64,000 bases of DNA from contig JAPPGB010000047.1 in assembly GCA_028821475.1 (NCBI GenBank), positions 1,136 to 65,135 on the forward strand, given 5' to 3'. The DNA comes from Spirochaetaceae bacterium (GTDB taxonomy: Bacteria; Spirochaetota; Spirochaetia; SZUA-6; Bin103). The notes under the pieces were generated by a model that was not told where the DNA came from, did not search any database, and was given only the letters and a program-made list of their open reading frames with translations. The position numbers were made by a program, and so were the translations under genes. Shown here piece after piece: positions 2,753 through 40,306 of the stretch (the first letter of the stretch is position 1; every line of letters starts with the position of its first letter).

Positions 2753-2931
2753 GCCGGTAAACCGGTTCCGGCCGCACCGCTTCGGGTACAGGCGGGGCAG
2801 GCGGCGGGCCACGGTCCGCCGCCTGGGTGCCGCCGTGCGCCACGCCTGGCTTGCACGGCGGGCAGGAGCAGGCGGGAGCCGCCTTGACGGGCCATTTCGG
2901 ACACAGTGTATGGTATGCCGCGAGCAGACCA

Positions 2932-5100
2932 ATGGCAACGACCAGCATACTGATCGTCGATCGGAGCCTGGACCGTGCACACCACCTGGAGCAGGGCGTT
3001 CGCGGCCTCGGCTACGCGGTGTGCGGCGTCGCAACCTGCGGCACGGAGGCGGTCGCGCTCGCCGGCGCCGGTGGAGCCGACTTGGTGCTGATCGACGCCG
3101 CGCTCCAGGGGGAGGTGTCCGGGGCGGACGCCGCCGCGCAGATCGGCGCCCGCCTTGCGATCCCGGTCGTGTTCGTCGTCGACTCCGCCGCCGGCGACGA
3201 ATCGGCCGCGCCCGACCTGCACCGGCAGGCGGCAAGCCGGCCGTCCGGGTACGTGCTGCGCCCCGTGCAGTGGCGGCAACTGGACCTGATCATCCGCACG
3301 GCGCTCGCCGCACGCGCCCGCGAGCGGGAGCTGACCGCCGAACGGCGCGCACTGCGGCATCGGCTCGACCGACTGCAGGAGCTCAACCGGCAACTCGAGT
3401 CCGGGTTCGACTGCCTCGACGATGCCGTGATCCTCTTCGATCGCGAGCGCAGGCCGCTGTTCCCCAACGCAGCCGCGCGGCTCCTGTGCGGAGACGCGAT
3501 ACTGAATCCCGACGCCGACCGGTGGCTCGACGAGTACGAACTGTTCGAGGTGGACGGGACGACGCCGGTCGATCTCGAGGAGGGTCCGCTCAGAAAGGCG
3601 CTGCGCAGCACGCAGGCGGTAACCGCCGACATGTTCGTTCGCAGAAGGAACCGCCCCGGGGGTGCCTACGTCAACGTCACGGCCAAGCCGCTCGGCGACC
3701 ATCCGGACGGTCCGCGCGGGGGGATGCTCGTCATCCGCGAGGTAACTCGGCACCGGGAGCGCGACGCGCAACTGCACGACACGCTCGCGGAGTTGCGCGA
3801 GCAGAACGAGTTGATCGACGCCGCGTTCAAGAGCATCAGCGATGGCATCGTGGTGGCCAACGCCGAGGGCATGTTTCTGTACGTAAACCCGGCCGCCGAG
3901 CAGATCGTCGGCATGGGACTCACCGACGCTCCACAGGAGCAGTGGTCGCAGCGGTACGGCGCCTACTATCCCGACCGTGTAACCCCCATGCCTTCCGAGG
4001 ACCTGCCGCTGCTGCGTGCCATCCGGCGCCGCGAGTCGGTGGACGAAGAGGACCTGTTCATCCGCAACCCGGGCCGGCCCGACGGCGTATACGTGCGCGT
4101 GAGCGCCCGTCCGCTGCTCAACGACGTCGGCGGCGTCCGAGGCGGCGTGATCGTGTTCCGCGACGTGACGGTACGCAGATTCGCCGAAGAAGCGCTGACC
4201 AACGCGTTCGCCGAGGGCCGGTCGGAGGTACTCGATACGCTTGTGCACAACATCGGTAATGCGATCACCAGCGTCACCACCGGCGTGGAGACGCTGCGCC
4301 GGACGCTCGCGAACGACCCGCTGCAACGCTCCCTGGCCGGGCTGGCCGCGGTGCTCGACGAGCACCGCGACCACTGGCTGGAGTTCCTCCGCGACGACGC
4401 GCGCGGCCGGCAAGTCCTGCCCTCCATTCTCTCACTCGCGGCACACTACGAGACGCGCGGCCGTGCGCTGATGAAGACCATCCAACGGGTGCGCAACCGG
4501 GCGTGGCGGATTGCCGACGTGATCCGCACCCAGCGCGAGGTCGACAGCGCCGGCATGGACCGCTCGAACGTCGACCTGAAGGGAGCGCTGCGGAACGCGG
4601 TGCGGGTGGTGAGCGAGTCGCTCGACCGGGCTCGGGTCCGCACCACCGTCGACTGCCGAGGGGCGCCGCGCGAGATTCGCATTCGCGAGAGCCGGTTTCA
4701 CCAGGCGCTGGTCAACCTGATCAAGAATGCCGTCGAGGCGATCGACGACCGCGGCGCCACGGACGGGCGCGCCCCGGCCCCCCGCATCCGCATCTGCGCC
4801 TGGTCCGGCGACCGGTACCTGAACCTGGAGGTTGCCGACAACGGCATCGGCATCCCAAGCACGGATTCCAGCTTGCTGTTCGCCCCCGGATACACCACCA
4901 AACGGAACGGCAGCGGGCTCGGTCTGCACTCGGTGGCGAACTTCGTTATCGGTTCGGGTGGCCGCATTCAGGCCCTGAGCGACGGCGCCGGCAAGGGAAC
5001 GACCATGCGCGTCATGCTGCCTCTCTCATCGGTGCTCGTCGCCGCGCCGCCGGCCCCCGCGAGCGCCGGACGGAACGGCCCGGCGCGGGAGCGGTCGTGA
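2932..5100 (+). CDS. Hybrid sensor histidine kinase (degenerate N-terminal receiver, PAS domains, HisKA-like H-box, HATPase_c)
   Basis: The N-terminus is receiver-like (ILIVDRS...LVLIDAAL). The middle is PAS-like. The H-box is LVHNIGNAITSV, and the N/G1/G2 boxes are LIKNAVEAI...DNGIGIP...GSGLGL. The start is placed at the ATG at 2932; the ORF-track frame opens at 2827. Confidence 0.75.
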   Translation: MATTSILIVDRSLDRAHHLEQGVRGLGYAVCGVATCGTEAVALAGAGGADLVLIDAALQGEVSGADAAAQIGARLAIPVVFVVDSAAGDESAAPDLHRQAASRPSGYVLRPVQWRQLDLIIRTALAARARERELTAERRALRHRLDRLQELNRQLESGFDCLDDAVILFDRERRPLFPNAAARLLCGDAILNPDADRWLDEYELFEVDGTTPVDLEEGPLRKALRSTQAVTADMFVRRRNRPGGAYVNVTAKPLGDHPDGPRGGMLVIREVTRHRERDAQLHDTLAELREQNELIDAAFKSISDGIVVANAEGMFLYVNPAAEQIVGMGLTDAPQEQWSQRYGAYYPDRVTPMPSEDLPLLRAIRRRESVDEEDLFIRNPGRPDGVYVRVSARPLLNDVGGVRGGVIVFRDVTVRRFAEEALTNAFAEGRSEVLDTLVHNIGNAITSVTTGVETLRRTLANDPLQRSLAGLAAVLDEHRDHWLEFLRDDARGRQVLPSILSLAAHYETRGRALMKTIQRVRNRAWRIADVIRTQREVDSAGMDRSNVDLKGALRNAVRVVSESLDRARVRTTVDCRGAPREIRIRESRFHQALVNLIKNAVEAIDDRGATDGRAPAPRIRICAWSGDRYLNLEVADNGIGIPSTDSSLLFAPGYTTKRNGSGLGLHSVANFVIGSGGRIQALSDGAGKGTTMRVMLPLSSVLVAAPPAPASAGRNGPARERS

Positions 5101-5987
5101 GCGCCGCGCAGTATCCCAACAGACGGGTTCTGATCGTCGACGACGAGCCGGACATCCACGACGACTTCACCGAGATGCTGTCCACCTCGTACCTGCCGCC
5201 GACCGCCGGCGGCACCGCGGAGCACGGCGTGCAACGGGCGCCGTTTCCGCCCACGTTCGAGTTGCTGCACGCCACCAGCGGCGAGCAGGCCTGCGACATC
5301 ATCCTGAACGCCAGGAGGTGGAGTCAGCCCATTGCCGTGGCGTACGTCGACATCAGGATGCCGGCGGGGATCGACGGCCCCGAGACGATCCGGCGGGTAC
5401 GCACGATGGATCGCGACGTCGAAGTCGTGATGATGACCGCGTACACCGACAAGACGCTTGCCGAGATCATCCAGGACATGGAACTGCTGCACAAGCTGCT
5501 GTACATCAGGAAGCCGTTCGTGCACGAGGAGATTCAGCAGATTACCGTGGCCCTGGTCGGCAAGTGGAACCTGGAGCAGGACCTGGCGGAGAAGCAGCGG
5601 CAGCTCGCCGGAAGCCAGCGCCGCCTGGAGGCCGTGCTCAACGCCACCCGTGACGCCATGGCGATGCGGGATCGCACGGGACGGCTGATGTACGCCAACA
5701 AGGCGTACCTGGCACTGATGGATATGACCCTCGACGAGTTGAAGAACCTCACGCCGGACGAGCTGGCGGCGCGAACCAGGGAACGCTTCAGCGAGCCGCG
5801 GCCGGGCGAGGTGGAGGGCGGGTTCGCGCTCCGCGGCCTCCGGCTGACCACCGCCGCCGGCGCCGGCGACCGCCAACCGGACCAGCGGCTGTACTACCGC
5901 ACCGCCACCGAGGTGCGTGACGGTGCCGAAGTGATCGGCGAGCTGGAAGTGTTCCGGGACGCGTCGCAGGAGATCGAGTCCGAGTAG
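5097..5987 (+). CDS. Response regulator: receiver with inserted loop plus C-terminal PAS-like module
   Basis: GTG at 5097 overlaps the kinase stop (GTGA). The receiver reads RVLIVDDEPD...VDIRMPAGIDG...MMTAY...IRKPF and is followed by a coiled coil and a PAS-like region. The N-terminal about 230 aa are paralogous to the N-terminus of the sigma-54 activator at 13144-15063. Confidence 0.7.
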   Translation: MSAAQYPNRRVLIVDDEPDIHDDFTEMLSTSYLPPTAGGTAEHGVQRAPFPPTFELLHATSGEQACDIILNARRWSQPIAVAYVDIRMPAGIDGPETIRRVRTMDRDVEVVMMTAYTDKTLAEIIQDMELLHKLLYIRKPFVHEEIQQITVALVGKWNLEQDLAEKQRQLAGSQRRLEAVLNATRDAMAMRDRTGRLMYANKAYLALMDMTLDELKNLTPDELAARTRERFSEPRPGEVEGGFALRGLRLTTAAGAGDRQPDQRLYYRTATEVRDGAEVIGELEVFRDASQEIESE

Positions 5988-6085
5988 ACCAAGGCGATGC
6001 CGCGGCCCGGCGCTCGCCGGCCAGCCGCGGTTTGGACGCGCTGGCCCCGGATCGGATCGTCGTCAGCCGATCCCGCCCGTCTGCC

Positions 6086-7543
6086 CTACCGGTCCAGGGG
6101 CAGCCCCAGGGCGCGCGCCACGCCGGCCCCGTAGGCGGGATCGGCCTTGCTGAAGTGGCCGACCTGGCGGCGCTGGATCTCCTCCGGCACGCCGGCCATC
6201 GCGCGGCCGAGGTTCGTGAACAGCCGCTCCTGCTGCTGCCGGGTCATCAGGCGGAACAGGTTGCCCGGCTGAGTGTAGTCGTCGTTGCCCGCGCGCTGGA
6301 TGGAACGGTCCGCCCGGCCCTCGAAGACCGGCGGCAGCCCCGGGTCGCCGTGCTCGTCGGCCGTGGCGCCGCGGCTGTCCGGCTCGTCGGTCGCGGTGCC
6401 GGCGGCGCGCGTGGCGCCGTCCCGGTGCGAGGTGTGCATGCGACCAGCGGCCCGATTCACCGGCAGCGTCTCGTAGTCGACGCCGAGCCGGTGGCGGTGT
6501 GCGTCCGCGTACGCGAAGATCCGGAACTGCAGCACCTTGTCGGGGCTGTAGCCGATGCCCGGTACCTGGTTGGCGGGGGAGAAGACGGCCTGCTCCACAT
6601 CGGCGAAGTAGTTGTCGGGGTTGCGGTTGAGCTCGACGATGCCCACCTCGACCAGCGGGAAGTCGCCCTGCGGCCACACCTTGGTCAGGTCGAACGGGTC
6701 GAAGGCCAACGAGGCGGCCTGGTCGTCGGTCATCACCTGCACGCACATGCGCCAGCGCGGACAGTCACCGTTTTCGATCGCGTGGTACAGGTCGCGCTGG
6801 TGGCTGTCGCGGTCGCGGCCGACCAGTCGCGCACCCTCCTCGTCGGTCAGGGATTCGATGCCCTGCATGGTCTTGAGGTGGAACTTGCACCACACCCGCC
6901 GAGCGTCGGCGTTGACCAGGCTGAAGGTGTGCGAGCCGTAGCCGTTCATGTGCCGGTATGACCTGGGTCGGCCGCGGTCCGAGAACAGGATCGTGACCTG
7001 GTGCAGGCTCTCCGGCGACCGCGACCAGAAGTCCCACATTGCGGCCGTGCTGCGCATGTTGGTGCGCGGATCGCGCTTCTGGGTGCGGAGGAAGTCCGGG
7101 AACTTGTAGGGGTCACGCACGAAGTGCACCGGGGTGTTGTTGCCGACCAGGTCCCAGATGCCCGCGTCGGTGTAGTACTTCATGGCGAAGCCGCGCATGT
7201 CGCGCTCGCCATCGGCGGCGCCGCGCTCGCCGGCCACCGTGGAGAATCGCCAGAAGCACGTGGTCTGCTTGCCCACCTCCGCGAAGGCGCCGGCCCGGCT
7301 GTAGCGCGTGATGTCGTTGGTGATGGTCAGGGTGCCGTAGGCGCCCGAACCCTTGGCGTACACGACGCGCTCGGGAATCCGCTCGCGGTTGAAGTGCGCG
7401 TGCTGCTCGAACAGTTGCCAGTCCTGGACCAGCAACGGCCCGCGAGGTCCGGCGGTGATGCCGCTGTGCCGGTCGCCGATCGCCGCTTCGTTCGCGTCCC
7501 GGCCGACCGGGCCGGTGGCCGCACCATCCATGGAGACACTCAC
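6086..7543 (-). CDS. katA: Monofunctional heme catalase
   Basis: 485 aa with the canonical catalase core: [41 protein letters not shown] and NGYGSHTF. Its start overlaps the stop of the upstream S24 ORF (ATGA). Confidence 0.9.
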
Positions 7544-7860
7544 AGTACGCGGGAGGACCAGCGGACTTCGCCGATGAGCCGAAAGAACGGGTGCAGGGGC
7601 AGGGTTGGGTAGCGCGTGTTGTCACTGACCAGGAACCAGGCGCCGCCGCGGAGATCGAGCCGTTTCACGATGACGCGAGTGGCGGTTCTGAACGCGTAAA
7701 TCCGGCAGCACTCAAGGTGCCGGCGGCTGCGGTCGACCAGGATCTCGCTGCCGTCCGGCAGCGTGGGGTGCATCGAGTCTCCGGCGATCTGCAGCATCTC
7801 GCACTGGTCGAGGTCGATGCTGTGCCGGAGTTGCCACTCCCGCGAGGCGAGCAGCCTCAC
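7540..7860 (-). CDS. S24 (LexA/CI-type) peptidase domain, C-terminal half of a split repressor
   Basis: Has the GDSMHP catalytic-Ser motif and the VKRL catalytic-Lys motif. GTG start sits inside a GTGA overlap with the upstream HTH ORF. The S24 domain actually begins (AAGNP cleavage site) in the upstream ORF, which is a different frame. Confidence 0.6.
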
Positions 7861-8186
7861 CGTCCGTCCTCGGGGCGTGCCGGCGGGCGCCGTGCGTCGC
7901 CCTCTATGGTCATCGGATTGCCGGCGGCGGCGAGGCCCCCGACGGCGATGGTGTTGCGGTCGATCTCCGTCAGCATGCGGCTCATGTCCTCGGCCGGGCG
8001 CGGGTCGTCGGTAAGCCCGGCGAGGTAGTCGAGGGAAGTGCGAAGTACGCGCGCGGCCCGGATGGCACGCGTGAATGACGGCGTGTTCTGACCCGTCTCG
8101 ATCATCGAGATCATCGACTGGTTGACGCCCATCGCCACGGCAAGGTCAGCCTGCTTGATCCCAAGCTGCCTGCGCCGCTCCGACAT
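7857..8186 (-). CDS. HTH XRE-family DNA-binding domain with LexA-type AAG cleavage-site region, N-terminal half of a split repressor
   Basis: MSERRRQLGIKQADLAVAMGVNQSMISMIETGQNTPS is an HTH_XRE. ...VGGLAAAGNPMTIEG matches the LexA VAAGEP cleavage region. The ORF stops 18 codons later, with a -1 shift into the S24 ORF. Confidence 0.6.
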   Translation of the reverse strand: MSERRRQLGIKQADLAVAMGVNQSMISMIETGQNTPSFTRAIRAARVLRTSLDYLAGLTDDPRPAEDMSRMLTEIDRNTIAVGGLAAAGNPMTIEGDARRPPARPEDGR

Positions 8187-8359
8187 ACGACCGCCGACCA
8201 TGCAAACCACTGTAATCGATCGCGGGGAAGAATCCAACACGCACCGGCAGGCACCAGGCAGGCACCACGGCACCACGAGCACGCCGACGTGCCCGGCCAA
8301 CGCCGGACGAGCGCACGCCGCTGGTGCCCGGTGCAAAAAGTCGCAGGAGGGGTTGACGT

Positions 8360-8402
8360 ATCACTATGGCTGATATTACCCATCTATATCAGTATGAGTG
8401 AT
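8360..8402. promoter_or_regulatory. Nested AT-rich palindrome (ATCACT..TGATAT..N9..ATATCA..AGTGAT): candidate operator in the divergent intergenic region
   Basis: Outer inverted repeat ATCACT (8360-8365) / AGTGAT (8397-8402); inner TGATAT (8371-8376) / ATATCA (8386-8391). TTGACG lies at 8353-8358. The palindrome overlaps the start codon of the giant gene and is markedly AT-rich in a 70% GC genome. Confidence 0.45.
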
Positions 8403-11400
8403 ATTCATGAGACGCAGTTCCACCCGGCCGCGCGACTGGCACGGCCACAGGCCTCACCCCGCGGGAGCCGGCGGCGGGCGGCGACGAAGCAGGTCCCGCT
8501 CCTGGTCGCGGTGCTGCTTGCCGCCCTGGCACTGGCGCCGGCGGCGGCGCAGGACACGGAGTCCACGGTCGCCCTCCTGAGCAACGTCGGCCAGCCCCGG
8601 CGATCTTCGGTGAACTTCCAGAGCCCTGAACGGGCGCAGGGGTTCACGACCGGGCCTAACCTCAAGGGCTATGCCCTCGCGAACATCGAGGTCGGCTTCA
8701 ACGCGGTAGAGGGCGGCGGTTCCGTCACGGTGTCGTTGTGGTCCGACAGCGGCGGCAAACCGGGAACCAAGCTGTTCGACCTGACCAACCCCTCCGGGTT
8801 CTCCGGGGCCGGGATGCACCGGTTCGCGGCGCCATCGAACACGGTGCTTGCGCCAAGGACCTCCTACCACCTGCACATGGCTCACGCCGGCAGTGAAGCG
8901 GAGCGATTGGCGACGTCGATCAAGCTCGTCAGCTCTTCGTCGGGGGTAGACGCAGGCGGCGCACCGGGGTGGGGCTTCGACAAGTGGCATTCGAAGCGCT
9001 ATTCCCATTTCAGCTACACCGAGGGGTCAGGCAAGGTCATGATCAACGTCAATGGCAGCACGGTACCGCCGGACCCCGCGATTCAGCTTGTCAGCAACCT
9101 CCAACAGACCCCGCCGTCATCGTCGGTCAACCTCCGGGGGACCCCCGAGCAGGCGCAGGGGTTCACCACCGGTACGGCCGGCGACGGCTACGTCCTGGCG
9201 CACGTGGCGATCGACTTCGACGACGTACGGGGCGGCGACTCCGTGGTCGTGTCCCTGTGGTCCGACAGCGGCGGCAAACCCGGACGCAAGCTGTTCGGCC
9301 TGAGTAACCCCGCCGGGTTCTCGGGCAGAGCGGTGCACCGCTTCACCGCGCCACCGAACACGGTGCTCGCACCAGGCACTACCTACTACGTGCACGTCAC
9401 CCATTCCGGTGACGCTACGGCCGTGGACGGGACTGCCATCGACCGCGCCTCGTCCGGCGGGGAGGATGCCGGCGGCATGGCGGACTGGAGCATTGCGGAC
9501 CGACACCACTATCGAGCCCGTCCCAACTTCCAGTTCAGCAACGGGGCCAGCGTGCTGTTGATCAAGGTGAGTGGGTCGACCGCGCCGGCGGGCAGCCTGC
9601 TGACCCCGACGCTGAAGCTCAGTGCCGGGACCATCGGCGAGGACGGCGGCGAGACGACGGTAACGGCGGTGTTGAGCCGCACCTCCAGCGTCGACACCAC
9701 GATCACCGTAAGCGCAACGCCGGTATCACCGGCAACCGACGACGACTTCACGCAAAGCGGCACGACGCTGACGATCCCGGCGGGGAGTACGACCAGCACC
9801 GGCACGGTAACCATCGCCGCGGTAAACAACGACGTCGACGCGGACGACAAGGAGGTGACGGTGTCGGCCACGGCGAGCGGCGTAGGCGTGGCGGCGCCGG
9901 CGGATCGGACGCTGACGATCACCGACGACGACACCCGTGGCGTGACGGTATCGGAGAGCACGCTGGCGTTCGGGGAAGGCGGCAGCGCGACCTACACGGT
10001 GGTGCTGGACTCGCAGCCGACGGCGGACGTGACGATCGGCGTGGCGTTCGCGCCGGGGACGGACGCGGACCTGACCGTGGACGAGGCGACGCTGACCTTC
10101 ACGGCCGGCGACTGGCGCGACGCGCAGACGGTGGAGGTACGGGCAGCGGAGGACGCGGACGACGTGCAGGACGTGGGGACGGTGCAGCACACGGTAAGCG
10201 GCGGGGACTACGGCGCCAACAGCGTGGCCGCGGCGGACGTTTCGGTCGAGGTTACCGACGACGAATCGCCGTCCACCACGGTGGTGCTGGCGGTGCAGCC
10301 GGAGGCGGTGGCCGAGGACGTGGGCGCCGGCGGCCGGGAGGTGACCGTGACCGCGACGCTGAACGCCGCGCCCCGCGCGACCGCCACCGAGGTGACGGTC
10401 TCCGTCGCTCCGGAGACGGCCACGGCCGCGGACTACGCGGCGGTGGCGGACTTCACGCTGACCATCGACGCGCAAGCGACGAGCGCGACCGGGTCGTTCA
10501 CGCTGCAGCCGGTGGACGACAGGTTGTCGGAGGGTGGCGAGACGGTCGCGGTGAGCGGCACGGCGGACTTGGCGGTGACCGGTACGACGGTGGCGATCAC
10601 CGACGATGAGGCCCCCCCGACGGTGACCCTGACGCTTGGTGCGCCGTCGATCAGCGAGCGCGGCGGCGAGACGACGGTGACGGCAACCCTCGACCACGGC
10701 TCCGCTGCCGAGACCACGGTCACGGTGACCGTGACGCCGGTGGCGCCGGCGGCGGGCGGCGACTACACGCTGAACGGCAGCACCCTGACGATCGCCGCGG
10801 GCAGCACGACCAGCACCGGCACGGTGACCATCGCGGCGGTGGACAACGCCGTGAACGCGGCGGACAAGCAGGTGACGGTGTCGGCGACCGCCACCAACAG
10901 CGTCGGCGTGACGGCCCCGGCGGACCGGACGCTGACGATCGCCGACGACGAAGTGAGCGCAGCCAAAGTGAATCCGGCGGGCGGGACCGAGCGCAATGAC
11001 CCGCCGCCTCCGCCACCCCCACCGCCACCGCCACCGCCGCGGGTGAGCATCGCGGATGCGAGCGCGCGTGAGGGCAGCGGCGTCATGGCGTTCACCGTGC
11101 GGCTCGGCGCGGCGACCGAGCAGCCGGTGACGGTGGCGTGGATGACCGCCGACGGCACGGCGGCGGCGGCCGCCGATTACACCGCGGTTACCGCCGGCAC
11201 CGTGACCTTCGCACCCGGACAGACCCGGCAGACGATCCGGGTAGATGTCCTGGACGACCGGCTGGACGAGTCGGACGAGACCTTCCTGGTACGGCTGAGC
11301 GACCCGGTGCACGCGCGGATAGAGTCCCCCGGCGGCGCCGCCACCGGGACGATCGTCGACGACGACGAGACCCCGGCGCTGACGATCGCCGATGCGCGCG

Positions 11401-13127
11401 CGGTCGAGAGCAGCGGCGAGATCGCGTTTCTGGTAACGCTGGAGGCGGCCAGCGGGCGGCCGGTGAGCGTTGCGTGCAGCACCGCGGACCAAACGGCGAC
11501 GGTGGACGAGGACTACCTCGGCGAGCGCGGCGTGCTGACTTTCGCGCCCGGGGAGACGCAGCGGACGATCCGCATCGTGGTGCTGGACGACAACCGGCAG
11601 GAGAAGGACGAGACATTCATGCTCGACCTGAGCGAACCGACCAACGCACGGATGGCGGCGGATGTGCTACGGGCCACCGGGACCATTGCGGATGACGACC
11701 GGCAGGTGACGGCGGCATGGCTGGCGCGCTTCGGGCGCACGGCAGCCAGTGAGGTGCTGGACTCGATAGTGGCGAGGATGGAAGGCGGCGCCGGCGCCGG
11801 CTCGTACATGACCCTTGCCGGCCAGCGTCTGCACGCCGTGCAGCCAGCGGCGGAGGGGGCGGATCAGCCGGCCCCGGTTGCCGTCGCCCACCGCACCATC
11901 AGCGACCGGGAGCTGCTGGCCGGGAGCGGGTTTCAGTTGGAGATTGCCCGGAGCGCGGCGCCGGAGGTCACCGCCGTGCCGCCGGGCGACGCCGCGGGCG
12001 CCCGCTGGACGGCCTGGGGCCGCGGCGCCACGACCTTCTTCGAGGGCCGGGATGCAGGGCTGTCGATGCAGGGCGAGGTGCTGACCGGCTCGTTCGGAAT
12101 CGACCGCGAGCACGGCGGGGTGCTGGCCGGCCTGGCGGTGGCGCACAGTGGCGGTGCCGGCGGCTACGCGGTGCCGGGCGGCGCCGCGGCGCCGGGCGGC
12201 GACGGTCGCCCGGCACGCGAAGGTGATCTGCGGGCAGCGTTGACCAGCGTGCACCCGTACGGACGACTGTCGCTGAACGAGCGCGTGCAGGTGTGGGGCG
12301 TGCTTGGCTACGGGATCGGCACGCTGGAACTGCGCGAAGCGAACCAGGCTGAGCGGGCCGGCATCGGCATGCTGCTGGGGGCATTCGGGGGGCGTGCGGA
12401 GCTGATGAACGGCGAGTGGAGCGGTGTCCGCCTTGCGCTGAAGACGGATGGCTACCTGTTGCGTATGACCTCGGAAGCGACCGCGGAGCTGCCGGCGGTA
12501 GCGGCGCACGTGAGCCGGCTGCGGTTGTCGGCGGAGGGCTCTACCGCCCTGGACGTCGGAGCGCGCCGCGTGCTGATGCCCTCCCTGGAGATAGGCGTAC
12601 GCCACGACGGTGGTGACGCGGAGACCGGGGCGGGTCTGGAGACGGCCGCCGCGCTGCGCTGGTTCGACCCCGCGTGGGGGCTGACGCTGGCGGCCAGCGG
12701 GCGGGTGCTGCTGACGCACCAGGATCGCGGCTACCGGGAATGGGGAGCCGGTGGTTCGCTGCATCTCGACCCGGGCGCCGCGGGGCGCGGCCCGGCGCTG
12801 ACCGTGAACTCCTCCTACGGCGCGCCCGGCGGCGCGGGAGTGCTCTGGTCGCTGCGCGACGCGACCGGCCTGGCTGCTAGCAACAGCGCCGGGGCGCCGG
12901 CGGGCCGCGTGGCCGCGCAACTGGGATACGGCCTGGAGCTGCCCGGAGGCGGCAGCGTGGTACCCTACGCCGGCGCCGAGTTGACCGAACGCGACCGCCG
13001 CACGTGGCGGCTGGGCAGCCGTTTCAGCCCGGGTGCGTTCGACGTGGCCGCCGAGGTTACCCGCCGGGACGCCGCCGGCACCGCTCCGATGCACAGCCTC
13101 ACCCTCAACGCGTCGGTGCGGCTGTAG
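8394..13127 (+). CDS. Giant secreted multi-repeat surface protein: signal peptide, 2 tandem novel ~140-aa domains, Ig-like repeats, poly-Pro linker, 2 Calx-beta domains, autotransporter-like C-terminal barrel
   Basis: Cleavable signal peptide (VPLLVAVLLAALALAPAAAQ). Two tandem repeats (VNFQSPERAQGFTTG...VSLWSDSGGKPGTKLF...NTVLAP vs VNLRGTPEQAQGFTTG...VSLWSDSGGKPGRKLF...). Repeated TLTIxAGSTTSTGTVTIAAV modules. P13 run at about 10990-11040. Two Calx-beta domains (DY..TFAPGQTRQTIRVDVLDD..DETF...ATGTI(V/A)DDD). The C-terminal about 470 aa have an alternating pattern reminiscent of type Va autotransporter barrels. Confidence 0.75.
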   Translation: MSDIHETQFHPAARLARPQASPRGSRRRAATKQVPLLVAVLLAALALAPAAAQDTESTVALLSNVGQPRRSSVNFQSPERAQGFTTGPNLKGYALANIEVGFNAVEGGGSVTVSLWSDSGGKPGTKLFDLTNPSGFSGAGMHRFAAPSNTVLAPRTSYHLHMAHAGSEAERLATSIKLVSSSSGVDAGGAPGWGFDKWHSKRYSHFSYTEGSGKVMINVNGSTVPPDPAIQLVSNLQQTPPSSSVNLRGTPEQAQGFTTGTAGDGYVLAHVAIDFDDVRGGDSVVVSLWSDSGGKPGRKLFGLSNPAGFSGRAVHRFTAPPNTVLAPGTTYYVHVTHSGDATAVDGTAIDRASSGGEDAGGMADWSIADRHHYRARPNFQFSNGASVLLIKVSGSTAPAGSLLTPTLKLSAGTIGEDGGETTVTAVLSRTSSVDTTITVSATPVSPATDDDFTQSGTTLTIPAGSTTSTGTVTIAAVNNDVDADDKEVTVSATASGVGVAAPADRTLTITDDDTRGVTVSESTLAFGEGGSATYTVVLDSQPTADVTIGVAFAPGTDADLTVDEATLTFTAGDWRDAQTVEVRAAEDADDVQDVGTVQHTVSGGDYGANSVAAADVSVEVTDDESPSTTVVLAVQPEAVAEDVGAGGREVTVTATLNAAPRATATEVTVSVAPETATAADYAAVADFTLTIDAQATSATGSFTLQPVDDRLSEGGETVAVSGTADLAVTGTTVAITDDEAPPTVTLTLGAPSISERGGETTVTATLDHGSAAETTVTVTVTPVAPAAGGDYTLNGSTLTIAAGSTTSTGTVTIAAVDNAVNAADKQVTVSATATNSVGVTAPADRTLTIADDEVSAAKVNPAGGTERNDPPPPPPPPPPPPPRVSIADASAREGSGVMAFTVRLGAATEQPVTVAWMTADGTAAAAADYTAVTAGTVTFAPGQTRQTIRVDVLDDRLDESDETFLVRLSDPVHARIESPGGAATGTIVDDDETPALTIADARAVESSGEIAFLVTLEAASGRPVSVACSTADQTATVDEDYLGERGVLTFAPGETQRTIRIVVLDDNRQEKDETFMLDLSEPTNARMAADVLRATGTIADDDRQVTAAWLARFGRTAASEVLDSIVARMEGGAGAGSYMTLAGQRLHAVQPAAEGADQPAPVAVAHRTISDRELLAGSGFQLEIARSAAPEVTAVPPGDAAGARWTAWGRGATTFFEGRDAGLSMQGEVLTGSFGIDREHGGVLAGLAVAHSGGAGGYAVPGGAAAPGGDGRPAREGDLRAALTSVHPYGRLSLNERVQVWGVLGYGIGTLELREANQAERAGIGMLLGAFGGRAELMNGEWSGVRLALKTDGYLLRMTSEATAELPAVAAHVSRLRLSAEGSTALDVGARRVLMPSLEIGVRHDGGDAETGAGLETAAALRWFDPAWGLTLAASGRVLLTHQDRGYREWGAGGSLHLDPGAAGRGPALTVNSSYGAPGGAGVLWSLRDATGLAASNSAGAPAGRVAAQLGYGLELPGGGSVVPYAGAELTERDRRTWRLGSRFSPGAFDVAAEVTRRDAAGTAPMHSLTLNASVRL

Positions 13128-35920: not shown

Positions 35921-36792
35921 CAGACGCTGCCGCGCAGGCGGGGGTCGAGCAGGTCGCGCAGCGCGTCGCCGAACATGTTCAGACTGAACACGGTGATCGT
36001 CAGGCAAAGTCCCGGCCAGGCGGCCAGCCACGGCGCCCGCTCCATGTACTCACGTCCTTCCCGGCTGAGCAAGCCTCCCCAGCTCGGAACGGTGGGCGGC
36101 AGTCCAAACCCGAGGAAGCTCAGAGACGCCTCGGATATCATCACCCCGCCGATATTGATGCTGAACACGATGATTGCGACAGGCATGATATTGGGCAGGA
36201 CATGGCGCACGAACGCTCGCCACTTCGAGGCGCCAAGCGCCTCCGCGGCCTGAAAATAGAGATTCTCCTTGATGCCGACGACCGCGCCTCGCACCACCCG
36301 CGAGCCGCCGATGCCGCCGGCTATGCCCAGGACGACTATTATCTGCGTTACGCCGCGCCCGACCAGCGACATTATCGTCAACAGGATCAACAATCCCGGG
36401 AACGCCATCCAGGCATCGACGAATCTCTGCACGGCCAGGTCGAACTTGCCGCCGAGGAATCCGGACGTGCCCCCGATCAGGAGCGCCACCACGACATTGA
36501 TACTGGTGGCCGCCAGACCGACCGCTATCGACAGCCGGGCTCCGTAGATGACCCGGCTCAACAAGTCGCGCCCCAACTGGTCGGTGCCCAGCGGATGCCG
36601 GGCCGATGAGCCCTGCAGTCTGTCCCTGAGGTGCACTTCAAGGAAGCCGTAAGGGGCCAGAACATCGGCGAATACAGCCACGAGAATCAATAGCAATACG
36701 ACAATACCGCAACCGACACCGAGTGGCTGTTCCCTGACCATCCTGGCAACGAAATCAGCCAGCGCGGTACGCCTCCTGGTCGCTTCACGCAT
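35920..36792 (-). CDS. ABC transporter permease (DppC/OppC-like)
   Basis: Binding-protein-dependent permease fold with the EAAxxxGA region and the C-terminal MFGDALRDLLDPRLRGSV. Start overlaps the dppB stop (ATGCGTGA). Confidence 0.85.
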   Translation of the reverse strand: MREATRRRTALADFVARMVREQPLGVGCGIVVLLLILVAVFADVLAPYGFLEVHLRDRLQGSSARHPLGTDQLGRDLLSRVIYGARLSIAVGLAATSINVVVALLIGGTSGFLGGKFDLAVQRFVDAWMAFPGLLILLTIMSLVGRGVTQIIVVLGIAGGIGGSRVVRGAVVGIKENLYFQAAEALGASKWRAFVRHVLPNIMPVAIIVFSINIGGVMISEASLSFLGFGLPPTVPSWGGLLSREGREYMERAPWLAAWPGLCLTITVFSLNMFGDALRDLLDPRLRGSV

Positions 36793-37744
36793 AGCGGACC
36801 CGGGGGTCGAAAAGAGGATAAACCAGGTCTATCATCAAATTGAAGCACACCACCGCGGTTGCGAAAAACAGGTTCACCCCGGAGACCACCGGGTAGTCTC
36901 TTTCTTCGAGCGCCAACACCATGAGGCGACCCAATCCGGGCAGGTTGAAGATGTTCTCCATGATAACGGAGCCACCAACCAGGATAGGCAACTGCAGGCC
37001 GATCAGGGTAACCACCGGGATCAGGGCGTTCTTGATTGCGTGTCTCATGATGACGAATCGCTCCTTGAGGCCCTTGGACCACGCCGTCCTGATATAGTCC
37101 TGCCTCAGCACCTCCAGCATCATGGTACGCGTCAGCCGCATGGTGCCGGCAGCAAGAGCCGTGCCCAGAATCAGGCTCGGAACGATGAACACCGCGAGAT
37201 TGCCCAGCGGGTCTTGGGTGAAAGAGACCAGCCGCATCGGCGGCGACCAGCCCCACCAGAGTGCCGGGTAAATAATCACCATCAGGGCCAGCCAGAAGTT
37301 GGGCGTTGCCAGGCCGATGACGGCGGCGGCGCGCCCCACGTAGTCGGCGGCCGAATTACGGCGCACCGCCGAGTAGATGCCGACCGGCACGGCGATCACC
37401 AACCCGATCAGGATTGCCAGAACACCCAGCTCGATGGTCACCGGAAGTCTAGCCGATATTCTCTGCTCTATCGAAACATCGGTTCCCCACAGTGAATTTC
37501 CAAGCGTGCCGCGCAACAGGATACCTCCGATCCAGCGTCCATACTGCACGTGGAACGGCACGTCCAATCCAAGCTGTTTCTCGAGAGCTTCACGATCCGG
37601 CACAAACCCCATCATTTCCAGTTGAACCGTCATTGCGTCTATTGCATCGCCGGGGATGAAGCGCACCGAGAGAAACGTCACGACGGTGACGATGAACAGG
37701 GTGGGAATCATCAGCAGGAGCCGGCGGATGATGTAGGCTCTCAT
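36785..37744 (-). CDS. ABC transporter permease (DppB/OppB-like)
   Basis: 319 aa. The N-terminal MRAYIIRRLLLMIPTLFIVTVVTF is typical of DppB. Confidence 0.85.
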   Translation of the reverse strand: MRAYIIRRLLLMIPTLFIVTVVTFLSVRFIPGDAIDAMTVQLEMMGFVPDREALEKQLGLDVPFHVQYGRWIGGILLRGTLGNSLWGTDVSIEQRISARLPVTIELGVLAILIGLVIAVPVGIYSAVRRNSAADYVGRAAAVIGLATPNFWLALMVIIYPALWWGWSPPMRLVSFTQDPLGNLAVFIVPSLILGTALAAGTMRLTRTMMLEVLRQDYIRTAWSKGLKERFVIMRHAIKNALIPVVTLIGLQLPILVGGSVIMENIFNLPGLGRLMVLALEERDYPVVSGVNLFFATAVVCFNLMIDLVYPLFDPRVRYA

Positions 37745-37827
37745 GTCACATCACGTCAGTTCCGACGGGTAGAGGAAAACCGGGGGGCCTGAGCCCCCCA
37801 GTCTCAGCGGGCACTAGTTTACCAGTA

Positions 37828-39636
37828 CTAATTTAGCAGTTCTGCCTTCAGCTCCTGGTCAATCCAGACACGGGCGTACAGGTCGCTCATTTGCCAATTC
37901 CCCATGGTCGCTTCGCCGTTATACCCCTTCAACCACGGCTGGCTGACATGATACATCGGGGAAACGGGACCCCAGATATTCCAATGTTGCTCCAGCGCGT
38001 ACATGTCTATCTCGCGGAACCACCCGTGGTACTCGTCGAGACTCGTGCTCGCCTTCAGGGCATCAATCATGGCGTCCATGTGAGGATCGCTGACGACCGC
38101 GGCGTTACCTGAAGTGCCTGAATGCCACCCCGTTGCATGAGCCTCATTGAAGTAGTTGGCGCCCGATATCGAGCCTATGAGATCCTCGAATGTGCCTTCA
38201 CGCAGGACCGCGCCGAACTCGGCCCCTGTAGACAGCACCTGAATCTCCAGATCAATGCCAAGCTCGCTCCAGTATGCAGCCGCCAATTCAAAGTAGCTGA
38301 GAACAGAATTTGCGTGAAGGACAACGGAGGTCTTGAATCTCGTGCCGTCGGCGCCGCGCGGGTAGCCGGCCTCATCGAGGAGCTTCTCGGCACCTTCGGG
38401 ATCGTACCTGTGGCCCCTCTTCACCTCGTCCGGCCACTCCTCGAACGGGACGAAGAGCCCCTTCTGAGCTGTTCCGACCTTCCCATGAGGCGTGATATCT
38501 CCCCTCCCTCCGAGGTAGGTTTCGTTGATCGTCTCCATGTCCAGCGCCATCTGCAGTGCCTTGCGCACCCTGATGTCGTCGTACGGCGGGTTGCTGGTGT
38601 TGAACCCGAAAGCGAACTCGGACCGTACATAGTACGGCCACTGCGTAATTTCGGGGTTGCTCTTGGCGAGACTCTCCGCCAAGTCTATGGTCCGCAATTG
38701 GGCTTCACCTGCATACCCCCTGTAGTCGAGCTTGCCGGAGCGCAGTGCCGCCGTACGGGTAGCCTCTTCTCGCATGATCAGCGCCACCAGCTCGTCAATG
38801 TAGGGCAGGCGGTTGTCCGGGTACTTTTCGTCGAAGCCCCAGTAGTTGGGATTCTTGAGCCAGGTGACGGACGATCCTTCGACATAGTCGGTCAGCATGA
38901 ACGGCCCCGTGCCGACCAGGTTCCTCCAGTCGTTGATGTTGCCGTGTTCCTCGATCACCTCCGGTGGATGGATGTCGAACGTGTACCACTGGAGGAGCGT
39001 AAACAGCGCAACAGGGTTGGGCTGCGCCAGCTCGATAACGACCGTCCATTGGTCGGTGGCCGTTACCGATTCGACTCCCACTGCGCCCAGCGGGCCCGCT
39101 CCCGGGGCAACCTCCGTAAAGCCGCTGCCCAGGCCGAGATAGCGGTGATAGTTGTATGCGATGTCATCGGCAGTCAGCTCGCGACCGTTCATCGGCGGCT
39201 TGTCATGCCAGTGAACGCCCTGGCGGATGTTGAGAACGATGGTCGTGTCGTCGGGTGTTTCCCAGCTCTCCGCCAGCGATCCCGTGAGACTCCAGAGCGG
39301 CGTGTCGGAGCTGACCATGCTCCGGCCCCATTCGTCTGCCGGCAGAGCCCAGTTCGCTATCGATGGTTTCTCAAGCACGCCTTGGACGAGCAAGAGACCG
39401 GAGCGACCGTTCAACGCTTCGTCGGCGGCGCCCGTCTCGGGCATGACGGTGGCATAGGTCAATGTCCCGCCGTATCGTGGCGCCTCCACCATCTCCCCGG
39501 TTCTGGGGTCGAGCACCATTTCCTTCTCGGCCGCCGCGGCCGGCTGGTCGCTCTCGCCGCTGGCCCAGACGCCGGTCGCGGCCAGGACGAACACGAGCAC
39601 AACCACGAAAGGGTGTGCAATTCCTGGAAGATTCAT
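37828..39636 (-). CDS. ABC transporter substrate-binding protein (family 5, peptide/nickel type)
   Basis: Signal peptide MNLPGIAHPFVVVLVFVLAATGVWA and a GGGAG RBS. About 600 aa, typical SBP_bac_5 size. No ATPase genes in the operon. Confidence 0.8.
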   Translation of the reverse strand: MNLPGIAHPFVVVLVFVLAATGVWASGESDQPAAAAEKEMVLDPRTGEMVEAPRYGGTLTYATVMPETGAADEALNGRSGLLLVQGVLEKPSIANWALPADEWGRSMVSSDTPLWSLTGSLAESWETPDDTTIVLNIRQGVHWHDKPPMNGRELTADDIAYNYHRYLGLGSGFTEVAPGAGPLGAVGVESVTATDQWTVVIELAQPNPVALFTLLQWYTFDIHPPEVIEEHGNINDWRNLVGTGPFMLTDYVEGSSVTWLKNPNYWGFDEKYPDNRLPYIDELVALIMREEATRTAALRSGKLDYRGYAGEAQLRTIDLAESLAKSNPEITQWPYYVRSEFAFGFNTSNPPYDDIRVRKALQMALDMETINETYLGGRGDITPHGKVGTAQKGLFVPFEEWPDEVKRGHRYDPEGAEKLLDEAGYPRGADGTRFKTSVVLHANSVLSYFELAAAYWSELGIDLEIQVLSTGAEFGAVLREGTFEDLIGSISGANYFNEAHATGWHSGTSGNAAVVSDPHMDAMIDALKASTSLDEYHGWFREIDMYALEQHWNIWGPVSPMYHVSQPWLKGYNGEATMGNWQMSDLYARVWIDQELKAELLN

Positions 39637-39861
39637 ACTGATCTCTCCCACATGTGAGATTGTGAGAGTGCTTCCGGTGCGAGTTGCCGTTCCCTGCCCA
39701 CTCTCGCGCCCGCAACGCAGGCGGCCAAAGCCGAGACGGCAATCTCAGGTGGTCACGCGCGCGGCATGAGTGTGACTCACTCTAGCAGCTAGGCCGCGCG
39801 CATGCTGCGATTAGTGTTGCAGACGCGCGACTACCCGTCAACTCCGTCAGTTGTGCGGCTA

Positions 39862-39901
39862 TTGACCGAAGACCACATATGACACTATATGCGGTGTCAT
39901 G
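39862..39901 (+). promoter_or_regulatory. hicAB promoter/operator copy 1: TTGACC-N17-CTATAT with inverted repeat ATGACAC-N8-GTGTCAT overlapping -10 and start codon
   Basis: Read directly. An identical arrangement is present at 44974-45013 upstream of the second hicAB copy. Confidence 0.45.
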
Positions 39902-40306
39902 CCGGGGGTTGGACCGGGTGTCAACGCTGCCATCGTCTGGCTCAACGCGTATGCGTACAACATCACGGTGCGGGAGTGCGTCTTCGAAGGCGAACCACTG
40001 TTCGAGGCTCGCGTCAAGGAGCTGCCGGACGTTCGGGAATATGCGGAGTCCGCACAGGAAGCCTACGATCTGGCCATCGACACCATCGAGACGGCAGCCG
40101 GGATGTTTGCCGAGACCGGCCGGCCGTTCCCGCCCCCGACCAGCCCGCAGGATGAATTCAGCGGCCGCGTTACGCTGCGCATTCCCAGAAGCCTGCATCG
40201 TGCGCTGGCGAGCGCGGCCGAAGACGAGGGCGTGAGCCTCAACCAACACCTCGTCACGGCCCTGACCCGCCTACACGCGAGTGCCGGCGCCAAGCGGCAC
40301 GGATAG
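39899..40306 (+). CDS. hicB: HicB-family antitoxin fused in frame to the first 12 codons of hicA (hicA deleted)
   Basis: MPGVGPGVNAAI (hicA N-terminus) is joined to LNAYAYNITV...RIPRSLHRALASAAEDEGVSLNQHLVTAL (HicB C-terminal RHH-like). Apart from the deleted hicA segment and the altered junction (IVW here, M+MKR there), the HicB-coding part is identical to 45303-45680. Confidence 0.7.
   Translation: MPGVGPGVNAAIVWLNAYAYNITVRECVFEGEPLFEARVKELPDVREYAESAQEAYDLAIDTIETAAGMFAETGRPFPPPTSPQDEFSGRVTLRIPRSLHRALASAAEDEGVSLNQHLVTALTRLHASAGAKRHG

Follow-up and report, generated by a model that had tools for sequence, protein, structure and literature searches.

The window, a 64,000-nt stretch of DNA from a Spirochaetaceae bacterium, carries a gene for a predicted secreted protein that combines a signal peptide, two choice-of-anchor R domains, four Calx-beta-like spacer modules, a proline run, two canonical Calx-beta domains, and a C-terminal region predicted to form an outer-membrane beta-barrel (Table 1). 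No paralogues were found within the window. An earlier, sequence-only reading of the locus had assigned a 1612-aa protein to 8394-13127. The open reading frame is real, but these coordinates yield 1577 aa; 1612 aa require that translation begin at the farthest upstream GTG, at 8289 (ORF 8289..13127, + strand). Two independent public gene calls take ATG 8394 as the start, among them an exact 1577-aa call in ENA (ERZ23495471, scaffold_951), and both this ATG and the sequence upstream of it are kept in a 90% identical locus (L001).

By inspection, the signal peptide comprises an n-region (aa 1-33, with RRR..K), an h-region (V34-A48), and a likely cleavage site after A50-A-A52, before Q53. It contains no cysteine and hence no lipobox. 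There is no alternative in-frame start ahead of the h-region, the signal peptide is conserved in the L001 orthologue, and long n-regions are common among members of the family described below. A Pfam scan of the protein gave no match to ESPR (PF13018). Predicted secretion through a signal peptide with a long n-region, as first proposed, is thus retained.

Table 1. Features of the gene and its product (nucleotide positions in the window)
Feature	Residues (aa)	Position (nt)	Strand	Basis
Complete gene, 1577-aa precursor plus stop		8394..13127	+	ORF list, translation
Sec-type signal peptide, long n-region, predicted cleavage between AAA and QD	1-52	8394..8549	+	Sequence inspection
Choice-of-anchor R domain, copy 1	55-230	8556..9083	+	NF041539, E=9e-48, two stretches
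Choice-of-anchor R domain, copy 2, predicted lectin/CBM-like beta-sandwich	231-400	9084..9593	+	
Four ~115-aa Calx-beta-like/LapA-type Ig-fold spacer modules	401-512, 513-625, 626-740, 741-856	9594..10961	+	PF20579, mutual similarity
13-proline run	870-882	11001..11039	+	Inside low-complexity linker aa 857-882
Two canonical Calx-beta domains	883-994, 995-1102	11040..11699	+	PF03160
Linker alpha-helix, motif AWLARFGRT	1101-1130	11694..11783	+	AF2 model
Helix-to-barrel region	1131-1203	11784..12002	+	AF2 secondary structure, family consensus
Predicted outer-membrane beta-barrel region	1204-1577	12003..13124	+	Predicted meander, ~18 antiparallel strands

N-terminal repeats, spacer modules, and Calx-beta domains

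The two N-terminal repeats are identical at 86 of 168 positions (51%). They had been put forward as a novel, unrecognized domain and a possible new family; the tandem arrangement holds, but a profile scan places both copies in the curated NCBIfam family NF041539 (choice-of-anchor R), which carries no functional assignment, with 162.2 bits against a cutoff of 30 and coverage of profile positions 1-154 of 155. Although the family resides in NCBIfam and not in Pfam, its curated status undoes the claim of novelty in spirit. The repeats model as a lectin/CBM-like beta-sandwich. All 10 tested homologues of the N-terminal region carry the NF041539 domain, 6 of them in 2-3 matching stretches. The choice-of-anchor series in NCBIfam is defined by its occurrence on surface proteins that differ in their sorting signals.

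The four spacer modules that follow resemble one another (z = 4.4-34 against shuffles), and module 4 also resembles the Calx-beta domains (z = 6-7). A weak match to the LapA family PF20579 extends over three stretches (28.7 bits; cutoff, 27). The motif TLTI.AGSTTSTGTVTIAAV lies at aa 458 and 797, within modules 1 and 4, which share 67% identity; the repeated TLTI. modules noted earlier are therefore borne out, with two occurrences. The proline run likewise contains exactly 13 residues. It is not a family feature: runs of at least 6 prolines occur in just 4 of 262 homologues.

The assignment of two Calx-beta domains was correct as well. PF03160 matches three stretches with E = 1.2e-39 and 135.4 bits (gathering cutoff, 27), the two canonical domains are 53% identical to each other, and the acidic motifs DDxxDExDE and DDD are visible in the protein sequence. 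A family alignment profile that includes the pre-barrel Calx-beta domain matches the Ca2+-binding domains of NCX1 in the PDB. The second Calx-beta domain adjoins the linker helix, and a Calx-beta domain is placed directly next to this helix in 195 of 200 homologues.

This arrangement bears on the fate of the passenger. Many type Va passengers are cleaved, and here the polyproline linker and the junction with the helix might be exposed. The passenger might be released after export as a soluble protein of the matrix or biofilm that binds Ca2+, the barrel serving as a disposable exporter in the manner of SPATEs. However, Pfam and NCBIfam scans revealed neither a protease domain nor a conserved cleavage motif, and the near-invariant position of Calx-beta at the helix suggests a structural junction rather than a cleavage linker. 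We consider release of the passenger improbable.

The C-terminal helix and predicted barrel

The C-terminal region (478 aa) was modeled by AF2 as a helix followed by a beta meander (pLDDT 82.7, pTM 0.76). The helix spans residues 2-31 of the construct (pLDDT 91-96), 76 of the 120 homologues listed share its AWLARFGRT motif, and it is assumed to lie inside the predicted barrel pore. Between helix and barrel are a variable stretch, a small hairpin, and a conserved RELLxGSSFxL segment with a short strand, E0. AF2 pLDDT is lower in this region (50-82), and covariation backs a pairing of E0 with the first strand, S1, which ranks 10th and 13th of 171.

Covariation was computed with mean-field DCA and a pseudolikelihood model on 257-336 sequences (Neff 159-214), and it independently recovered 12 of the 18 predicted hairpins. 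It gave no signal for barrel closure: S1-S18 ranked 167-170 of 171, and S1-S12 ranked 152 (mean-field DCA) and 27 (pseudolikelihood) on the same scale. The sequence-only reading had set a barrel of 12 or 16 strands against a soluble domain. The prediction is a barrel-like meander, but one of ~18 strands.

Autotransporter translocators are the nearest solved structures to the predicted barrel and score highest; Foldseek against the PDB returned weak matches only (TM 0.56-0.64 to BrkA). At the sequence level, the C-terminal segment alone matched nothing in Pfam at E<=10, including PF03797, and no PDB sequence at E<=10 by phmmer. A full-length NCBIfam scan at E<=1 found no barrel match at the C-terminus of the query, including TIGR01414, and a PDB search with the family profile at E<=10 returned Calx-beta matches only and nothing for the C-terminus. 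Some homologues do reach the known profiles: 17 of 62 match TIGR01414 (autotransporter barrel), 7 match PF13505, and 1 matches PF03797. The homologue P0100, for example, aligns to profile positions 122-377 of TIGR01414 with 29.7 bits (cutoff, 16). The proposal of an autotransporter-like barrel therefore stands as a predicted outer-membrane barrel with translocators as nearest structures, but not as a profile match of the query itself.

Translation confirmed that the protein ends in leucine (...NASVRL) and lacks the aromatic residue of a beta-signal. The last strand is nevertheless beta-signal-like, keeping the alternating hydrophobic pattern L-x-L-x-A-x-V-x-L. A terminal W, F, or Y is present in 128 of 146 complete homologues (88%), and leucine is limited to the clade of the query.

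An enlarged barrel could instead act as a porin-like channel for solutes or glycans, with the lectin/CBM-like heads capturing substrate for a nutrient device rather than an adhesin. We regard this as very improbable. Translocators take the top structural scores, Pfam scans detected no TonB box or plug-domain family, no uptake genes were seen adjoining the gene, and a stalk of six Ig-like modules would put the heads far from the pore.

Family distribution and a proposed export route

The barrel domain defines a very large family that is without a name in curated databases: clustering at 50% identity yields 6,661 clusters, and those relatives that we looked up at NCBI are annotated "hypothetical protein". 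The domain is C-terminal in every member, the proteins reach 6407 aa, and their passengers are built from adhesin-type domains (Calx-beta, cadherin-like, Big_9, fn3, PKD, and LRR). Calx-beta and this barrel occur together in thousands of database proteins, at least 10 of which have choice-of-anchor R domains as well, and the suggestion that the architecture is unusual is not supported on those counts. In the literature, searches on choice-of-anchor domains and on Calx-beta with autotransporters found no description of this architecture. A GTDB scan with a 13-sequence alignment as query located the family in MAGs of >10 phyla, with matches confined to diderm lineages; the same scan with a single query sequence gave no matches. 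Several of these phyla are named in sponge studies, and published work reports an enrichment of Calx-beta among the symbionts of sponges (PMC9531527, PMC11706023). The few gene neighborhoods inspected revealed no conserved partner gene.

These family data also bear on a further alternative, in which the barrel is merely an outer-membrane anchor of the OmpA or OmpM type and the long N-terminal part remains periplasmic, perhaps serving as a scaffold of the envelope that binds Ca2+. Passengers of up to several thousand residues with adhesin-type repeats argue against it, as does the typical occurrence of choice-of-anchor domains on surface proteins. Translocators with a pore helix match best in structure, and Pfam scans found no peptidoglycan-binding domain. 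A periplasmic location thus has a low probability in our estimate.

In the hypothesis that we favor, and to which we assign a probability of about 0.7, the protein is a surface adhesin of the type V (autotransporter-like) kind that anchors itself, and its bearer is a spirochaete associated with sponges. For this adhesin we infer an extracellular location, an export mechanism, a role for Ca2+, and a ligand, as follows. The Sec signal peptide would direct the precursor into the periplasm. The C-terminal ~480 aa (helix, ~70-aa segment, and outer-membrane barrel) would then constitute the translocation and anchor unit, its barrel being inserted by the general BAM machinery. Export of the passenger may proceed C-terminus first, so that the helix-adjoining Calx-beta domain emerges before the rest; its folding outside, in Ca2+-rich seawater, could play an autochaperone- or ratchet-like role. 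The mature protein would stay tethered to the barrel, with a stalk of two Calx-beta domains, the polyproline linker, and four Calx-beta/LapA-like modules. This stalk is probably stiffened by Ca2+. The two distal lectin/CBM-like choice-of-anchor R domains may recognize a glycan or some surface ligand, for which the sponge matrix is a plausible location.

A broader hypothesis is that the Calx-beta junction, the AWLARFGRT helix, the ~70-aa insert, and a barrel of up to ~18 strands together represent a distinct, unnamed type V subclass, spread horizontally among sponge symbionts of >10 phyla, whose Ca2+-dependent Calx-beta adhesins engage or mimic the sponge aggregation factor. We think this unlikely. 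If the barrel truly has >12 strands and Calx-beta acts as a folding junction, type V secretion would cover a wider range than is now known, and heterologous display combined with binding assays would offer a concrete way to study how symbionts adhere to their sponge hosts; if not, the protein is simply a divergent autotransporter adhesin. The locus offers a clean full-length example of a large family without a curated name, in which a Calx-beta passenger is fused to an autotransporter-like barrel. The literature that we searched gives no account of how the eukaryotic-like Calx-beta proteins of sponge symbionts, whose enrichment has been reported repeatedly, are delivered to and retained at the surface.

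Comparison with known surface and secretion systems

The predicted C-terminal barrel is structurally nearest to the translocators of type Va autotransporters (AIDA-I, NalP, Hbp, EspP, EstA, and BrkA). The type Va barrel has ~270 aa and 12 strands, whereas the beta region of the query has ~372 aa, ~100 aa more, and ~18 predicted strands. The classical helix directly precedes strand 1; in the query, ~70 aa intervene. The classical passenger is a beta-helix with an autochaperone, in contrast to the Ig-like and Calx-beta modules here, and the query has no profile match and a terminal leucine. Given the missing profile match, the longer beta region, and the gap after the helix, "textbook" autotransporter is too strong a description.

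Other type V classes fit less well. In two-partner secretion (type Vb: FhaC and CdiB), passenger and barrel are separate, whereas the query joins them in one polypeptide. Pfam and NCBIfam scans of the query matched no POTRA or Omp85 family, and the pre-barrel region consists of the helix and the ~70-aa segment, which rules out types Vb and Vd. An inverse autotransporter is ruled out because the barrel is C-terminal.

With the repeat adhesins of type I secretion (LapA, SiiE, and MpIBP), the query shares tandem Calx-beta, cadherin-like, or Ig-like extenders and a distal ligand-binding domain, and the logic of a Ca2+-stiffened stalk would apply to both. BapP of Pseudoalteromonas tunicata (PMC12153261) falls under the same comparison. 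LapA, SiiE, MpIBP, and BapP, however, carry RTX repeats or a T1SS signal at the C-terminus and a retention module at the N-terminus, and they lack a C-terminal barrel, whereas the query has an N-terminal Sec signal, predicted N-terminal ligand-binding heads, and the barrel at its C-terminus. The Sec-type signal, the C-terminal barrel, and the lack of any RTX family in Pfam and NCBIfam scans rule out an RTX/LapA-type adhesin.

Choice-of-anchor R proteins are related through NF041539, which both N-terminal repeats match; the difference lies in the anchor, an autotransporter-like barrel that would add one more type to their range. Lastly, the sponge aggregation factor is a host proteoglycan rich in Calx-beta domains (PMC5400394, PMC11670116). 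It is eukaryotic and has no barrel, but it shares with the query Calx-beta repeats, an extracellular site (predicted for the query), a context of Ca2+-dependent adhesion, and the same habitat; that the query interacts with it or mimics it is our speculation.

Gene start, export signal and locus

The sequence-only reading had assigned a 1612-aa product to 8394-13127. The open reading frame is real, but these coordinates translate to 1577 aa, and the greater length is reached only from the farthest GTG (see table). ATG 8394 is the start in two independent public gene calls, and there are no alternative in-frame start codons between it and the hydrophobic core. An ENA entry (ERZ23495471, ROBB21-1_SAMN13943213_METAG-scaffold_951) matches the 1577-aa product exactly, and the orthologue on a second ENA contig, L001, has a gene call with the same ATG.

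On direct reading, residues 1-52 resemble a Sec signal peptide whose n-region is long and basic, as had been proposed: RRR..K in the n-region, a predicted h-region at V34-A48, and AAA/QD. By a crude heuristic, 35 of 121 long relatives carry a recognisable signal peptide, whose n-region is often comparably long; many others are N-terminal fragments. In many full-length barrel-family relatives (P0183, P0188, P0205, P0209, and others), an unusually long, query-like n-region of 25-55 aa precedes the hydrophobic core. Such n-regions recall the extended signal peptides known from large type V proteins, but Pfam gave no ESPR match.

Features of the adhesin gene and its surroundings (nucleotides of the window unless marked aa)
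Feature	Position	Strand	Remark
Catalase gene	6086-7531		Beside HTH_3/Peptidase_S24 pair
Peptidase_S24 gene	7540-7860	-	4-nt overlap with HTH_3/XRE gene
HTH_3/XRE gene	7857-8186	-	Divergent neighbour
Short tandem repeats in intergenic leader	8246-8276		GGCAGGCACCA x2, then GGCACCAC x2
Long ORF	8289..13127	+	1612 aa solely with farthest GTG as start
Palindrome TATCA-N7-TGATA, two copies	8359-8375 and 8387-8403		28 nt apart, within 19-nt direct repeat
P13 run	11001-11039	+	Exactly 13 Pro
Four ~115-aa modules	aa 401-856	+	Mutually related, z=4.4-34 versus shuffles

The adhesin gene is solitary between a divergent HTH_3 gene, followed by Peptidase_S24 and catalase genes, and a convergent sigma-54 response regulator. 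This order is the same in L001, and the HTH_3/Peptidase_S24 split is identical in both public contigs. The pair resembles a split LexA/CI-like self-cleaving repressor and might regulate the adhesin gene. The two TATCA-N7-TGATA palindromes are the only matches in the 64 kb window (0 expected); an AT-rich island surrounds them, L001 preserves them, and the second overlaps the adhesin ATG. They look like putative operator sites of a dimeric HTH repressor.

In L001 (ENA ERZ24894577, a long-read assembly), the orthologue at 2782-7512 is split into five gene calls, with 89 gaps across 5.1 kb at 90% DNA identity to the query locus; the adjacent catalase is split too. These breaks are probably assembly frameshifts rather than pseudogenisation, and many database "homologues" of 500-800 aa are fragments like these broken calls. 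Elsewhere, 36000-40000 has a GC content of ~0.60 (~0.69 in the rest of the window); its genes are for unremarkable components of ABC peptide/oligopeptide transporters (SBP_bac_5 and BPD_transp_1).

A predicted C-terminal barrel and its family

For the C-terminal 478 aa, searches of Pfam, NCBIfam, and PDB sequences gave no match, and a family profile did not change this. Relatives are numerous: a word-indexed search gave 455 matches, and an exhaustive phmmer search of 1.84 billion cluster representatives gave 6,661 at E<=1e-3 and 2,623 at E<=1e-30. The domain invariably sits at the C-terminus of its proteins, which reach 6407 aa. Among 62 aligned relatives, 17 match the autotransporter barrel model TIGR01414, 7 match PF13505, and 1 matches PF03797. 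One relative, P0100, scores 29.7 bits against TIGR01414 (curated cutoff 16), colinear across positions 122-377 of 432, approximately model strands 1-10.

An AlphaFold2 model built from the 62-sequence alignment (pLDDT 82.7, pTM 0.76) predicts a 30-residue helix with a conserved AWLARFGRT motif, ~70 less confident residues with a small hairpin and a conserved RELLxGSSFxL motif, and then ~18 consecutive antiparallel strands across 372 aa. Because the model is a meander and not a soluble domain, the earlier barrel reading stands. In Foldseek, the model reached a TM of 0.56-0.64 against BrkA, no higher. Two covariation analyses (Neff 159 and 214) placed 10-12 of 18 predicted hairpins within the top 16 of 171 strand pairs, which lends the meander independent support; a strand pair closing the barrel wall was found in neither. 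In the covariation maps, domain residues 112, 229/230, 274/275, 305, 321, and 354, within aa 1211-1453 of the full protein, couple to several distant strands. These hubs may face the lumen, in contact with the helix or plug; noise is the alternative, given the low Neff. That such a barrel is porin-like and serves uptake, with tethered modules for binding, seems very unlikely to us.

The last residue is W, F, or Y in 128 of 146 relatives with complete C-termini, and a terminal L occurs only in the query's clade. Translation bears out the Leu noted earlier, and the query's C-terminus retains the hydrophobic alternation of a beta-signal.

Two motifs of the family, scanned against GTDB species representatives, yielded at least 447 confirmed loci. 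The top 80 all come from MAGs, spanning Spirochaetia, Nitrospirales, Gemmatimonadetes, Latescibacterota, Acidobacteriota, Binatia, Thermodesulfobacteriota, Alpha- and Gammaproteobacteria, and Nitrospinota. Several single genomes hold multiple paralogues, three to four or more each, which suggests lineage-specific expansion; one Binatia MAG has loci L015, L023, L039, and L043, and one Spirochaetia MAG has L006, L007, and L009. Some of the MAG names, for example APA_bin and SB0661_bin, trace to genome sets of symbionts of the sponges Aplysina aerophoba and Ircinia ramosa (PMC11706023), and Calx-beta is reported to be enriched in sponge symbionts from different phyla (PMC9531527, PMC11706023). 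The closest NCBI relative is a partial "hypothetical protein" of a Spirochaetaceae MAG (97% identical).

A proposed Calx-beta stalk with choice-of-anchor R heads

Calx-beta domains occur in 204 of 262 barrel relatives and end within ~5 residues of the helix in 195 of 200 relatives that have the helix; Calx-beta, helix, and barrel are a conserved unit. The family's other passengers consist of adhesin-type repeats (cadherin-like, Big_9, fn3, PKD, HYR, LRR, and He_PIG). A matrix protein that is cleaved and then released is an improbable reading of the query. The query's two canonical Calx-beta domains (PF03160, 135 bits; 53% mutual identity), recognised in the sequence-only reading, follow the P13 linker and carry acidic DDxxDExDE and DDD motifs, which bind Ca2+ in NCX1 CBD1. 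A family-alignment profile, which takes in the Calx-beta domain ahead of the barrel in homologues, supports homology to the NCX1 domains.

The four modules are more weakly related to the Calx-beta domains (module 4, z=6-7) than to one another; scanned alone, the modules barely exceed the threshold of the Pfam LapA domain PF20579 (28.7 bits versus 27). The repeated TLTI.AGSTTSTGTVTIAAV motif reported earlier occurs twice, in modules 67% identical. The 13-proline run, likewise as described, is specific to the query's lineage; runs of at least 6 Pro occur in 4 of 262 relatives.

The two tandem N-terminal copies are present (86/168 identical), but they are not novel: the NCBIfam model NF041539, named "choice-of-anchor R domain", has two matches here (E=9e-48, 162 bits versus a cutoff of 30). 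A known family was thus found in NCBIfam, and none in Pfam. All 10 tested homologues of the N-terminal region carry this domain, 6 with two or three matching stretches. Its predicted fold resembles the mycobacteriophage Bxb1 tail spike, the lectin-like domain of Cwp84, PHR domains, and CBMs of SGNH carbohydrate esterases; judged from fold, the pair would be distal heads that bind a ligand, probably a glycan. At least 10 barrel relatives combine choice-of-anchor R with the barrel, so the overall plan recurs. With Calx-beta so common besides, the architecture is not rare; calling it undescribed was reasonable.

Proposed mechanism and type Va autotransporters

No dedicated transporter gene adjoined relatives' genes in the neighbourhoods examined, which, with the solitary gene, is consistent with a self-contained type V-like system dependent on BAM. 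Sec would take the precursor into the periplasm, where a scaffold merely anchored by the barrel is an unlikely end point. Instead, BAM-dependent insertion of the barrel would be followed by C-to-N passenger export, the junction Calx-beta domain emerging first and folding with extracellular Ca2+ as an autochaperone-like ratchet. Six Calx-beta-type modules and the polyproline rod would form a Ca2+-stiffened stalk, its tip bearing two lectin-like heads for a putative ligand. We give this whole mechanism (export, barrel insertion, Ca2+ stalk, and lectin-like heads) a probability of about 0.7.

The protein would work like a type Va autotransporter adhesin. The query differs from type Va autotransporters in lacking a profile match of its own, in its atypical helix-to-barrel spacing, in a passenger that is not a beta-helix, and in its terminal Leu, and it may differ in strand number (~18 predicted, no closure pair recovered). 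It is best described as one of a large family, outside curated models, in which autotransporter-like barrels are fused to Calx-beta passengers.
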